Under the pieces are notes generated by a model. That model worked only from the letters and a program-made list of their open reading frames with translations. It searched no databases and was not told where the DNA came from. The position numbers and the translations under genes are program-made. Shown piece by piece: positions 7,731-26,189 of a DNA stretch of 53,455 bases; the first letter of the stretch is position 1, and each line of letters starts with the position of its first letter. The DNA is taken from assembly GCA_030679115.1 (NCBI GenBank), contig JAUXTS010000009.1, positions 1 through 53,455 on the forward strand, written 5' to 3'. Source of the stretch: an archaeon (GTDB lineage: Archaea > Nanobdellota > Nanobdellia > Pacearchaeales > GW2011-AR1).

Positions 7731-7848
7731 GCCTCCATAGCTCAGTGGTAGAGCAACAGTTTTGTACAATGCGATTGCATCGCAAGCGTTTGATGCAGAC
7801 TGTATTCAAACGAACTGTGGGTCGAGGGTTCGAATCCCTCTGGAGGCT
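7731..7848 (+). tRNA. tRNA-Thr (anticodon TGT) with 46-nt intron at 37/38 (7767-7812)
   Basis: GCCTCCA acceptor, GCTC/GAGC D stem, ACAGT...ACTGT anticodon stem, loop TT-TGT-A, T arm GAGGG-TTCGAAT-CCCTC. The intron contains hairpins TGCGAT/ATCGCA and CGTTTGA/TCAAACG. Confidence 0.88.
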
Positions 7849-8032
7849 TTCCCTAAGAAACCAATGGTTTCTTGTGGGTTCAACTTCCTTAAAAATTGTT
7901 AAAATTATTTTTAATTATTGTATAACTAATTTCTCTCATAACCATTCACTTAGTAACTAACTAACTTACTAAGTTAATAAGAAAGATTTATATATTGCCT
8001 GAAATAATAAACAGCACAAGAAAGAGAGGAAA

Positions 8033-15470: not shown

Positions 15471-15556
15471 TATGCGGAGAACAGGTACTAGCAGAACTTC
15501 GTTCCGCGGTAACTCCAACATTTACATGTTGAAGTATTCGAAATTCGAATCCTTTA
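15471..15556 (-). repeat. tRNA-Leu trailer element: inverted T-arm copy, T-loop copy, hairpins H1 and H2, repeat of the tRNA 3' end
   Basis: In tRNA sense: TAAAGGATTCGAA-TTTCGAAT-ACTTCAACATGTAAATGTTGGAGT-TACCGCGGAACGAAGTTCTGCTAGTA-CCTGTTCTCCGCATA. The last 15 nt match the tRNA end CCTGTTCCCCGCATA with one mismatch. Confidence 0.8.
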
Positions 15557-15640
15557 TGCGGGGAACAGGATTCGAACCTGTGTAAGCACTAAGCTACTTG
15601 GTCCTAAGCCAAGCCCATTTGACCACTCTGGCATCCCCGC
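15557..15640 (-). tRNA. tRNA-Leu (anticodon TAG), class II with long variable arm
   Basis: GCGGGGATGCCAGAGTGGTCAAATGGGCTTGGCTTAGGACCAAGTAGCTTAGTGCTTACACAGGTTCGAATCCTGTTCCCCGCA. It has a CTTGG/CCAAG anticodon stem, loop CT-TAG-GA, and T arm ACAGG-TTCGAAT-CCTGT. Confidence 0.9.
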
Positions 15641-15729
15641 AAATCTGAGATTTGTGGGCATTGGGATGAAATCCCTCAGCCCGCATAAATTAAAGTAATA
15701 AAAGAGTGTTTTAAATTTAACTAATAGAA

Positions 15730-22376: not shown

Positions 22377-22497
22377 GCTCCCGTAGCTCAGCCTGGATAG
22401 AGCACCTGCCTTCTATTGAAGGACTGAGTCTTCGATACATCGGAGACTTGTCTACGAAGTAAGCAGGGGGTCGCACGTTCAAATCGTGTCGGGAGCG
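22377..22497 (+). tRNA. tRNA-Arg (anticodon TCT) with 46-nt intron at 37/38 (22416-22461)
   Basis: GCTCCCG acceptor, GCTC/GAGC D stem, CCTGC...GCAGG anticodon stem, loop CT-TCT-A, T arm GCACG-TTCAAAT-CGTGT, CGGGAGC-G. Confidence 0.9.
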
Positions 22498-22626
22498 TTT
22501 AAAGGGATTTCATTCTTCAATCCCTTATTTCTCGATTTGAACTGCGAAGCACGTTCAAATACTTCAACATGTTAATGTTGAAGTCACCGCAGAGCTTTGC
22601 TCTGCAAGTGCTGTCGGGAGCGTTTA
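22498..22626 (+). repeat. tRNA-Arg trailer element: hairpin, inverted T-arm copy, direct T-arm copy, H1, H2, 15-nt repeat of the tRNA 3' end
   Basis: AAGGGATT...AATCCCTT (22502-22526). CGATTTGAACTGC (22533-22545) is an inverted copy of the T arm. GCACGTTCAAAT (22549-22560) is a direct copy. H1 is ACTTCAACATGTTAATGTTGAAGT (22561-22584). H2 is CACCGCAGAGCTTTGCTCTGCAAGTG (22585-22610). TGTCGGGAGCGTTTA (22612-22626) is identical to 22487-22501. Confidence 0.85.
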
Positions 22627-22640
22627 CACGATACTAAATC

Positions 22641-22648
22641 TTTAAAAG
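22641..22648 (+). promoter_or_regulatory. TATA box for tRNA-Cys
   Basis: TTTAAAAG, 24-31 nt upstream of tRNA position 1 (22672). Confidence 0.5.
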
Positions 22649-22671
22649 TGCTATATGTTTCTAAAATATAC

Positions 22672-22744
22672 GCGCAGGTGGGACAGTGGTTACTCCGGTC
22701 GGCTGCAGCCCGACTTTTCCCAGGTTCGAATCCTGGCCTGCGCT
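22672..22744 (+). tRNA. tRNA-Cys (anticodon GCA)
   Basis: GCGCAGG acceptor, GTCGG-CTGCAGC-CCGAC anticodon arm, T arm CCAGG-TTCGAAT-CCTGG, CCTGCGC-T. Confidence 0.9.
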
Positions 22745-22923
22745 TATTATAGTTTTGAAAGCCAGCGGAAAACTTTTTCTAAAAGTTTTTGCTGTTCGAA
22801 TCACTTCAATCTCTTTAGAGTTGAAGCTTCAAGATTCTATGAATCTTGACAGTGCTCAAGAATCAAAACTCAGGATTCTTGACATCACCGCGGAGCTTGC
22901 TCTGCGAGTGCTGGCCTGCGCTT
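22745..22923 (+). repeat. tRNA-Cys trailer element (expanded version with extra nested hairpins)
   Basis: AAAACTTTT-TCT-AAAAGTTTT (22769-22789). T-loop copy TTCGAAT (22795-22801). H1 variant ACTTCAATCTCTTTAGAGTTGAAG (22803-22826). TCAAGATTCTATGAATCTTGA (22829-22849). TCAAGAATC...GATTCTTGA (22856-22882). H2 is CACCGCGGAGCTTGCTCTGCGAGTG (22886-22910). CTGGCCTGCGCTT (22911-22923) is identical to 22733-22745. Confidence 0.85.
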
Positions 22924-24814: not shown

Positions 24815-24885
24815 GGGCCCGTATTATAATGGTATTATTCGCCCATGGCATGGGTGAGACCCGAGTTCGATTCTCGGCGGGTCCA
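24815..24885 (+). tRNA. tRNA-Ala (anticodon GGC)
   Basis: GGGCCCG/CGGGTCC acceptor with the G3:U70 identity pair, CGCCC-ATGGCAT-GGGTG anticodon arm, T arm CCGAG-TTCGATT-CTCGG. The D stem is AT-rich and has one mismatch. Confidence 0.82.
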
Positions 24886-24969
24886 TCGAACGAGGAGAGT
24901 TCGATTCACTTCAACATGTGAGTGTTGAAGTTGTCCACGGAACTTGTTCTGTGGCATCGGCGGGTCCAT
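24886..24969 (+). repeat. tRNA-Ala trailer element (minimal version)
   Basis: ATCGAAC (24885-24891) is an inverted copy of the T-loop. GAGTTCGATT (24897-24906) is a direct copy. H1 is CACTTCAACATGTGAGTGTTGAAGT (24907-24931). H2 is TGTCCACGGAACTTGTTCTGTGGCA (24932-24956). TCGGCGGGTCCAT (24957-24969) is identical to 24874-24886. Confidence 0.85.
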
Positions 24970-25064: not shown

Positions 25065-25706
25065 ATGAATAGACGATTAAGAACTAGAGGAAATGTAAGC
25101 ATAGATTTGTTTAATGATACACGAGATAATACTTCAGGATATAAGGAAAGCATGATTCGTTTTGAATTGGTCAAAAGATTGCCCTTTGCCTCTTTTTCTC
25201 ATGGAGAATTTATGAGAAAATCAGCAGAATTAATTAAACTTGTTCAAAAATATCAAAGATTGGAACCTAAAGTCGAAATATTAGGGTTTAATAGCCCTCA
25301 AGATTGTCTTGCTTTACATGGACTTGACGGCGGACAAGATGATGCAACCGCACATAAAATTTTAGATGGAAGAAATTCATATTCTTTTGAAGAGTTTACA
25401 CAAAAAGATTATGAAAGAAATATAGAACCAGAATTAATATTGAAATCTGAAGAAAAAGATTCATTTATGATTTGTTTAACTGCAACTCCAGGTATAGAAA
25501 CTAACTTTGCAGGTATTAATGCTCCAAGTTATTATAGTTTTTTTAAGTCAAAGAATTTGAAAAGAAGATTACAATTTTATGGACAAACATTGGCTCCTGA
25601 ATTATTTGAAGCAATTGTAGAAAGATATCATAAGCCAGGGTTAACTCATTCATTAAGTCATAAATATAAAGATAGCATATTGAATTATTTACAATGTGCA
25701 ATTTAG
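25065..25706 (+). CDS. Hypothetical protein
   Basis: 213-aa ORF. A TATA-like ATATTTAAATA lies about 27 nt upstream of the ATG. No family recognised. Confidence 0.55.
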   Translation: MNRRLRTRGNVSIDLFNDTRDNTSGYKESMIRFELVKRLPFASFSHGEFMRKSAELIKLVQKYQRLEPKVEILGFNSPQDCLALHGLDGGQDDATAHKILDGRNSYSFEEFTQKDYERNIEPELILKSEEKDSFMICLTATPGIETNFAGINAPSYYSFFKSKNLKRRLQFYGQTLAPELFEAIVERYHKPGLTHSLSHKYKDSILNYLQCAI

Positions 25707-26071: not shown

Positions 26072-26189
26072 TGGCTCGGGGGAGGATTGAACTCCCGGCC
26101 TCGGCCTGTCTCAAATCTGCGATTTGCGAGCAAATCCCAGTAACCTGTGATTTCATGAGAGCCGCGTTCTACCACTGAACTACCGAGCC
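26072..26189 (-). tRNA. tRNA-Met (anticodon CAT; elongator Met or Ile2-type) with 46-nt intron (about 26108-26153)
   Basis: In tRNA sense: GGCTCGG-TA-GTTC-AGTGGTA-GAAC-G-CGGCT-CTCATG[intron]A-GGCCG-AGGCC-GGGAG-TTCAATC-CTCCC-CCGAGCC-A. It is not initiator-like, because there is no A1:U72 pair and no GGG/CCC in the anticodon stem. Confidence 0.85.

Follow-up and report, generated by a model that had tools for sequence, protein, structure and literature searches.

In the 53,455-nucleotide contig JAUXTS010000009.1 (GenBank assembly GCA_030679115.1) of an archaeon of the Pacearchaeales, which is referred to here in its full length as the window, four of the eight tRNA genes (Arg-TCT, Cys, Ala, and Leu-TAG) are followed by a trailer containing a 50-nucleotide double hairpin, here called y, and in our judgment these trailers are probably the DNA-level footprint of y as a miniature non-autonomous mobile element. 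The inverted copy of the T arm contained in the trailers, named A', would accordingly be a junction scar, and not an evolved RNA switch. It also seems probable that y targets the edge of the T-loop, and that the tRNA's 3' end is duplicated so that the gene survives. The window comes from a groundwater metagenome, is AT-rich (GC about 0.32), and is archaeal, with intron-bearing tRNAs, TFB, and an archaeal glycyl-tRNA synthetase (GlyRS) whose nearest named relatives are from metagenome-assembled genomes of Nanoarchaeota, Pacearchaeota, and Woesearchaeota.

Besides the four cases of the window, eight y-bearing tRNAs are located on related contigs of the Nanoarchaeota/Pacearchaeota kind (L003/L008, L006, L007, L009, L010, L012, L027, and L029/L030), and together with one RNA-sequencing contig from run X6 they make up a family of 13, for which the 33 y-less tRNAs of the same contigs serve as controls. 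A metagenome scan with the pattern of the first hairpin of y (hp1) gave 13 loci, seven of them holding the whole unit at six distinct sites, given that L003 and L008 are the same in sequence, and the unit at all six sites immediately follows a tRNA (Met, Cys, Leu-TAG twice, Leu-TAA, and Ile). Two more units came from contigs that were retrieved through homologues of GlyRS, behind tRNA-Cys (L027) and tRNA-Ala (L029/L030). The hp1 pattern matched only two bacterial terminators in genome contigs, and scans of viral contigs with hp1, with the second hairpin (hp2), and with another hairpin family named z gave nothing relevant: L033 is fragmentary and lies where its contig ends, and the matches in L034 and L024 are due to chance. 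The trailer had no blastn match in phage and plasmid records, and a covariance model of y run over 213 kb of fetched loci returned no further full-length copies, its sub-threshold matches being the known y2-type variants and remnants. We found no description of such elements in the literature.

All of these loci share the same order of parts. In the four cases of the window, the intact tRNA and 1-4 nucleotides of trailer are followed by a filler (x'), by A', which inverts the T-loop and the beginning of the T-stem 3' strand, by a short turn, and by a direct copy of the T-loop with 0-5 nucleotides of the T-stem 5' strand (A2); then comes y, and after it the remainder of the tRNA, named B2 or D2, which takes in the 3' strands of both T-stem and acceptor as well as the discriminator and the start of the trailer, before the native flank is reached. 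We use A1 for the T-stem 5' strand and T-loop of the working gene, B2 for the downstream copy of the T-stem and acceptor 3' strands plus 1-28 nucleotides of trailer, and D1 and D2 for the first and second copies of the direct repeat of the tRNA 3' end. The site of y is the 3' edge of the T-loop, where it follows tRNA position 60 or 61 in the direct orientation and position 57 in the inverted one. When y is removed and A2 is joined to B2, the tRNA sequence is exact in 6 of the 10 parsed cases, and each of the remaining joins deviates by a single substitution or a one-nucleotide indel, with both present in L012. In the window, the join rebuilds the 3' part of tRNA-Ala exactly and that of tRNA-Arg minus one base (G62), and D2 of tRNA-Leu(TAG) carries one substitution with respect to D1. 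The direct repeat mostly measures 12-18 nucleotides, with 22, 23-34, and about 41 nucleotides in three others.

D1 and D2 are both present in all 12 y-bearing tRNAs, and a downstream copy of the tRNA 3' end, found in 12/12 y-bearing tRNAs and in 0/33 y-less ones, ties the duplication to y. Because the interrupted T-loop belongs to a partial second copy downstream and not to the working gene, the tRNA itself is preserved intact, and none of the 13 family members has y without an intact upstream copy.

The element y has a length of 49-51 nucleotides in 10 cases, and its two-hairpin structure is strongly maintained, given that 94.7% of the cells pair, as opposed to 85% in shuffles (0/500 reaching the observed value), and that pairing falls to 31-45% when the partners are slid. 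Both-sided changes occur in 8 of its 21 pairs, six of these in hp2, and the cells contain 18 G.T against 2 A.C combinations, which implies that one specific strand, the y sense strand, is the one that folds. As single-stranded DNA, the y of tRNA-Arg is predicted to form a stable double hairpin of -16.9 kcal/mol, with a z-score of -8.7. The left flank always ends in ...GAAT, ...AAAT, or ...GATT(C), or in GGAAT on the opposite strand, and in some variants (L027, L016, and the Arg locus of L029) hp1 is swapped for a CCC...GGG hairpin with hp2 kept. Against Rfam, y gave nothing at E values up to 5, with only tRNA matches at the gathering score.

Several known kinds of unit were considered for y and set aside. 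A classical miniature inverted-repeat transposable element was rejected because the ends, ACTTCAAC... and ...GCGAGTG, are not inverted repeats and the duplication of 12-41 nucleotides is not fixed. By eye, with no dedicated motif scan, neither the conserved boxes nor the pocket loops of a C/D or H/ACA guide RNA, a ribozyme, or a CRISPR-like unit were seen, and Rfam gave no match to them. A TnpB- or Cas12-like guide RNA, in which a hairpin would be followed by a 13-18-nucleotide match to the tRNA, is only remotely conceivable, as no such gene was seen. Fifty nucleotides also seem far too few for the known guide scaffolds of TnpB- or Cas12-like systems.

The mobility of y is suggested by its orientation, its sites, and its distribution. 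At the Cys locus of L006 and the Ala locus of L029, y points in the direction opposite to the tRNA, and the geometry is common to both, with the tRNA and its trailer followed by A' (positions 63/64 down to 54), G57, the inverted y, and positions 58-73 plus trailer, so that the left flank on y's own strand is again ...GGAAT. In L016, a y-like pair of 48 nucleotides is inserted within the loop of another hairpin element, z, without duplication, and in the Cys trailer of the window a 58-nucleotide insert stands exactly between hp1 and hp2, also without duplication, and is missing from a related strain of run X2. This insert consists of T-loop-like palindromes, and its site, between GTTGAAGT and C, looks like the target of y itself, between GTTCGAAT and C.

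Close relatives differ in which tRNAs carry the trailer. In L016, with a GlyRS 92% identical to that of the window, the identical tRNA-Ala has no such trailer and only A2 and the first 8 nucleotides of y are left behind tRNA-Cys; in the syntenic L009, Cys, Ala, and Arg-TCT are trailer-free and Leu carries a y; and strains of run X2 with identical tRNA-Cys and upstream region have two other trailer forms. Moreover, y copies at different tRNAs of one genome or sample are each other's nearest relatives, as with hp2 of the window Arg, which is nearest to that of the window Cys (88%), and with L010 Leu-TAA and L012 Ile, which are from one metagenome and 92% alike. A2 and B2 nevertheless match their own local tRNA, and therefore the tRNA-matching flanks must have been made locally and were not carried by the element. 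Decay is evident from the substitutions and indels in B2 copies and from truncated remnants in L016 (Cys) and L029 (Arg).

Two further loci resemble this family. Behind tRNA-Arg(TCT) of L029 (7668-7727, minus strand), a 50-nucleotide y2-type unit is followed by TTCAAATC and the first half of hp1, and no 3'-end copy remains, which looks like a tandem or nested arrangement that was partly deleted. The trailer of tRNA-Thr in the window (7849-7890) contains GGGTTCAACTTCC, a T-loop-like sequence followed by ACTTC, and may be what decay has left of a similar insertion.

In contrast to y, the inverted copy A' is unconstrained in its own length (6-13 nucleotides), in the turn that follows it (0-5 nucleotides in most cases and 54 in L027), and in the filler before it (0-55 nucleotides, unrelated, with no repeated source found), and it is for this reason that we read it as the scar of a fold-back junction. 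It is always placed just before A2 or before the inverted y, and in the two inverted cases it abuts the inverted element with no direct T-loop copy beside it. Its exact inverted match reaches at least 10 nucleotides in 8 of the 12 cases, each length being attained by at most 2 of 2000 shuffles. The first-pass annotation of the window had proposed that the inverted copy tracks the T-loop variant of each tRNA, which is borne out in most of the 12 parsed cases and is not evident at the window Cys, where no exact inverted T-arm match precedes A2. Given that A' includes T-stem bases contiguous with the loop, it was copied from an uninterrupted T arm. The centre of the A'/A2 junction lies at the 5' edge of the T-loop, with y at the 3' edge. 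Most likely, as far as these sequences allow us to judge, a tight fold-back junction connects the intact gene with the interrupted copy, and A' is its short arm.

The tRNA-Arg(TCT) locus is the one where the repeats were first noticed, and the repeats quoted at that time were found exactly as described, with the T arm GCACGTTCAAATCG at 22473-22486, its inverted copy CGATTTGAACTGC as A', and the direct copy GCACGTTCAAAT as A2 (see the table below). The inverted copy forms 13 standard pairs and one bulged C with the real T arm, and 3+8 pairs around the GAA loop with the downstream copy, as had also been reported. A repeat search recovered a perfect 10-nucleotide inverted repeat (22477-22486 with 22533-22542) and the perfect 12-nucleotide direct repeat, plus an exact 15-nucleotide direct repeat, TGTCGGGAGCGTTTA, that had not been listed; an exact inverted match of 10 nucleotides to the last 25 nucleotides of the tRNA is reached by 2 of 2000 shuffles of the insert. 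The same logic had been extended to tRNA-Ala, with ATCGAAC (24885-24891) and GTTCGAT (24899-24905), and to tRNA-Leu on the minus strand, where AGGATTCGAA (15544-15553) adjoins TTCGAAT (15536-15542), and both examples stand. The Arg filler has no relative among the other trailers, and the presumed native flank after D2, TTTACAC..., may be compared with the TACACAC behind the trailer-free tRNA-Arg of L006, a match of 5-6 nucleotides only.

Positions of the y-bearing tRNA loci in the window and of the parts of the tRNA-Arg(TCT) trailer
Feature	Position	Strand	Remarks
tRNA-Arg(TCT)	22377-22497	+	complete, canonical; 46-nucleotide intron after the anticodon; Rfam tRNA 50.6 bits; ARAGORN with introns
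A1 of tRNA-Arg	22473-22484	+	T-stem 5' strand and T-loop
D1 of Arg	22487-22501	+	first copy of the 15-nucleotide direct repeat TGTCGGGAGCGTTTA: end of T-stem 3' strand, acceptor 3' strand, discriminator, TTTA
x' filler of Arg	22502-22532	+	31 nucleotides; own hairpin AAGGGATT...AATCCCTT at 22502-22526
A' of Arg	22533-22545	+	inverted copy of the uninterrupted T arm, positions 49-62, one base missing
GAA turn	22546-22548	+	
A2 of Arg	22549-22560	+	GCACGTTCAAAT; exact direct copy of T-stem 5' strand and T-loop
y of Arg	22561-22610	+	50 nucleotides; two abutting hairpins, hp1 22561-22584 and hp2 22585-22610; nhmmer and covariance-model matches
C61, then D2/B2 of Arg	22611-22626	+	second TGTCGGGAGCGTTTA; D2 at 22612-22626
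tRNA-Cys	22672-22744	+	D1 22733-22745; filler 22746-22793; A2 22794-22802; D2 22911-22923
y of window Cys	22803-22910	+	58-nucleotide nested insert 22827-22884 between hp1 and hp2
tRNA-Ala(GGC)	24815-24885	+	D1 24874-24886; A' 24886-24891; A2 24897-24907; y 24908-24956; D2 24957-24969
tRNA-Leu(TAG)	15556-15641	-	D1 15555-15569; A' 15544-15553; A2 15536-15542; y 15486-15535; D2 15471-15485

As regards the mechanism, we suggest with moderate confidence, by analogy, that y may be a hairpin-ended, strand-specific, target-adjacent element of the IS200/IS605 type that enters T-loop-like sites, a comparison that draws on established knowledge of these systems and not on homology. As in the miniature relatives of IS200/IS605 (palindrome-associated elements, and REP/REPIN with RAYT), the ends of y are strand-specific imperfect hairpins without terminal inverted repeats, and its 3' end (GAGTG) loosely resembles the end of the target (GAATC). 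It also lies immediately 3' of a short motif with which the T-loop ends (...RAWT), but with regard to target duplication the picture is mixed, with none at two non-essential sites and one at every tRNA. Unlike IS200/IS605, y is only 50 nucleotides long with boundaries at the feet of the hairpins, no Y1 (HUH) transposase was found among the neighbours in the window or the fetched loci, and the association of y is exclusive to T-loop copies of tRNAs, where the 12-41-nucleotide duplication and the inverted junction are always present.

In such a scheme, y would enter single-stranded DNA at a T-loop-like site in the IS200/IS605 manner, and, in a tRNA that is presumed to be single-copy and essential, only those events that regenerate the 3' part would persist. 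With low confidence, we propose that the duplication arises in the same event as the insertion. A nick 5' of the insertion would prime strand-displacement synthesis, which would rebuild positions 49-54 through 73 and a variable stretch beyond, that is, D1; the displaced flap (A2-y-B2) would be kept; and the new strand would switch template at the inverted repeat of the T arm and be sealed to the end of the flap, leaving A' and the turn. As alternatives, the duplication could come from a selection filter acting on rare rearrangements, or from staggered cleavage by a recombinase at both edges of the 7-nucleotide loop. It is conceivable, though we hold it doubtful, that y is the minimal end-pair of an undescribed archaeal single-stranded DNA element homing to the T-loops of tRNAs, whose integration itself rebuilds the target via strand displacement and a hairpin-sealed flap. 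If this were true, it would amount to a "target-restoring" transposition into essential genes, and it would keep supplying detached 3' pieces of tRNAs, out of which split tRNA genes may be built, together with trailers able to misfold the pre-tRNA.

A number of observations weigh against taking y as a mobile element. The neighbours of the copies, in the window and in the fetched loci, included no transposase, integrase, or reverse transcriptase; Pfam, applied to nine neighbouring open reading frames, identified TFB, a tRNase Z-like metallo-beta-lactamase, and a glycosyltransferase, and no recombinase. None of the copies found has coding cargo, and no true empty/filled pair within one population was seen. 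In different genomes, the variants of hp2 at one type of tRNA tend in part to fall together (Leu with Leu, Ala with Ala), which could reflect old insertions kept in step with their tRNA and would hint at a function. Besides, the conservation of y extends to hosts that share only about 75% identity in GlyRS, so that either ongoing mobility or selection for a cellular role is needed. The duplication step is a conjecture, because the 12-41-nucleotide range and the inverted junction fit no characterised transposition pathway. Finally, a low-depth metatranscriptome contig of a relative (run X6) spans the tRNA end, A', A2, y, and B2, and for this reason the trailer may be transcribed, with DNA carry-over being possible in that sample. 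A search among RNA runs turned up none that contains the organism of the window.

The explanation that the first-pass annotation had put forward, namely, an evolved RNA switch in which A' toggles between the real T arm and the downstream copy and so gates 3' processing or quality control, we regard as very unlikely. The two helices are mutually exclusive, as had been claimed, and the fold check of the 250-nucleotide RNA of tRNA plus trailer makes them nearly isoenergetic in silico, with ensemble energies of -104.4 kcal/mol when the T-arm-opening helix is forced and -105.2 when the trailer hairpin is forced, and with this gap of about 0.8 the T-arm-opening helix is thermodynamically competitive. 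The whole transcript is unusually structured (z-score of -7), and a run of at least four T directly after the first tRNA copy occurs in 0/12 y-bearing against 8/33 y-less genes, a weak trend; these short T runs make read-through into the trailer plausible, and the contig of run X6 points the same way. Nevertheless, the either/or pairing follows from the architecture alone, given that an inverted copy between two direct copies can always pair with either one, which is a consequence of its origin. The lengths and spacing of the helices vary, and A', turn, and filler are not conserved in register, with no exact A' at the window Cys, whereas the conserved and covarying part is the 50-nucleotide hairpin pair; the inverted cases would place A.C mismatches in the hairpins of a tRNA-sense transcript; and close relatives have the same tRNA without a trailer, just as B2 copies hold substitutions and indels. 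The annotation had itself mentioned a by-product of the insertion of an element as the alternative, and this fits much better. Likely, any read-through transcripts could compete with the T arm and acceptor stem, as a side effect and not as the reason for the structure. The independent transcription of the trailer from the TATA-like TTTAAAGG (22498-22505), which had been left open, finds no support either, given that the hexamer TTTAAA occurs 1.5 times per kb per strand, which is not above chance, that none of the other trailers compared has such a hexamer, and that TTTAAAGG is composed of the end of D1 and filler; being common and not conserved, it was rejected as a promoter.

A small RNA or protein-binding module made of y, freed for example by tRNase Z, with B2 kept for instance to pair with the tRNA 5' strand, would account for the strong structural conservation with compensatory changes across divergent hosts and for the partial grouping of hp2 by tRNA type, and in the minimum-energy fold of the tRNA plus trailer the 5' strand of the tRNA does pair with B2 and not with B1. 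We still consider it improbable, because inverted copies would need separate antisense transcription, because y is present or absent between close relatives and decays to remnants (L016 Cys, L029 Arg), and because there was neither an Rfam match nor a conserved promoter to be seen. Very unlikely, too, is the derivation of the trailers from larger integrative elements, such as viruses or plasmids that use a tyrosine integrase and enter tRNA genes in the segment between T-loop and 3' end; D1 and D2 would then be the attL and attR cores and y an arm of attP, with the body deleted. The direct repeat indeed begins where the T-loop meets the T-stem and stops a few bases beyond the tRNA, as typical attachment blocks in tRNAs do, and a filler of 0-55 nucleotides stands where the body would have been, but all 13 family members are shorter than 170 nucleotides (inserts of about 60-165) and none has a body; y interrupts what should be a contiguous attR, parting the T-loop from the T-stem of the second copy; A2 and B2 match the local tRNA and so cannot have come with the element; no integrase gene was found nearby; and y-like units also insert cleanly at non-tRNA sites. 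Least credible of all is an alternative 3' exon, with y or the whole interval as a T-loop intron cut by the archaeal splicing endonuclease, even if these genomes encode the tRNA-intron endonuclease, hold intron-containing tRNAs, and have y at a precise T-loop position, since y begins and ends on bases that pair at the feet of its hairpins, with no bulge-helix-bulge motif of two 3-nucleotide bulges around a 4-bp helix at its borders, y also occurs inverted, and a complete uninterrupted tRNA is always upstream.

If y is taken as a mobile element, it has partial counterparts in several other known systems. As in tRNA-targeting elements with a tyrosine integrase, a direct repeat of the tRNA 3' segment, starting from the T-loop/T-stem, brackets the insert and leaves the tRNA intact, but here the insert is geneless and about 60-165 nucleotides long, the second repeat is split by y, and the repeats are made from the local tRNA. 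In the casposon of Aciduliprofundum boonei, the duplicated target of 15 bp overlaps tRNA-Pro at its 3' end, and the segment coding for the T-loop is part of the target (PMC5137440). Most y-linked duplications are likewise of 12-18 nucleotides and start at the T-loop edge; in contrast to the casposon, y has no terminal inverted repeats and no Cas1 nearby, only one of its junctions is precise, and its duplications, which also reach 22-41 nucleotides where casposons make 14-15 bp, cover nearly the whole 3' strand and not 5 bp. With the non-canonical introns and the split or permuted tRNAs of archaea, y shares the interruption of the T-loop region, a DPANN host with canonical introns, and the making of a free-standing tRNA 3' fragment; it differs in lacking the bulge-helix-bulge, in that what is interrupted is a pseudo-fragment, with an intact gene in front of it, and in occurring in either orientation. 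The inverted and direct copies, connected through a 0-3-nucleotide turn and centred on the inverted repeat of the T arm, are similar to the duplications of quasi-palindrome template switching and fold-back repair, except that here they are bound to one inserted element and recur at many tRNAs. Probably, y is a new miniature insertion element with a duplication step that may also be new.

The genes of tRNAs are classic landing sites of mobile DNA, and the present family bears on the old question of how the interrupted, split, or permuted tRNA genes of archaea originated, as it provides a sequence-level intermediate in which an essential tRNA survives an insertion while a detached 3' fragment is made. 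For the annotation of DPANN genomes, it means that structured tails of 60-170 nucleotides behind tRNAs are likely selfish DNA and not regulatory RNA. Should the insertion chemistry turn out to include the duplication, this would give transposons a new means of sheltering in essential genes.

Some neighbouring observations deserve mention. The second small family, z, is a long hairpin (TTTGCTCACCGCAG...CAAGAGTGAGTCAAAG) that starts from the T run directly behind many tRNAs of the related contigs, as in L012 (12260-12305, minus strand), L029 (13581-13646, minus strand), and L016 (2093-2200, plus strand), and also behind tRNAs in L007, L010, and L027; its base (CACCGC...GAGTG) resembles the base of hp2 of y, and z does not occur in the window. 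The three intron-bearing tRNAs of the window, Thr (7731-7848), Arg-TCT (22377-22497), and Met (26072-26189), all have introns of 46 nucleotides; L029 shares that of Arg-TCT, whereas L006, L009, and L027 lack it, and runs X2 and X3 are rich in intron-less forms. An open reading frame of 213 amino acids (25065-25706) with no Pfam match separates the tRNA-Ala trailer of the window from a gene of the HIT family, and it is missing at the same place in the 92%-related L016. When L016 (44-160) is compared with the window (22634-22760), the promoter regions in front of tRNA-Cys are almost the same, and yet about 17 of the 73 positions in the tRNA bodies are different, with four acceptor pairs among them, which suggests from this sequence comparison that the tRNA-Cys gene was replaced between the two and did not diverge slowly. 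In L018 (10356-11864), a DDE transposase gene (DUF772/DDE_Tnp_1) is located directly after GlyRS, where other relatives have tRNA-Ala, and is a different mobile element at the same hotspot.

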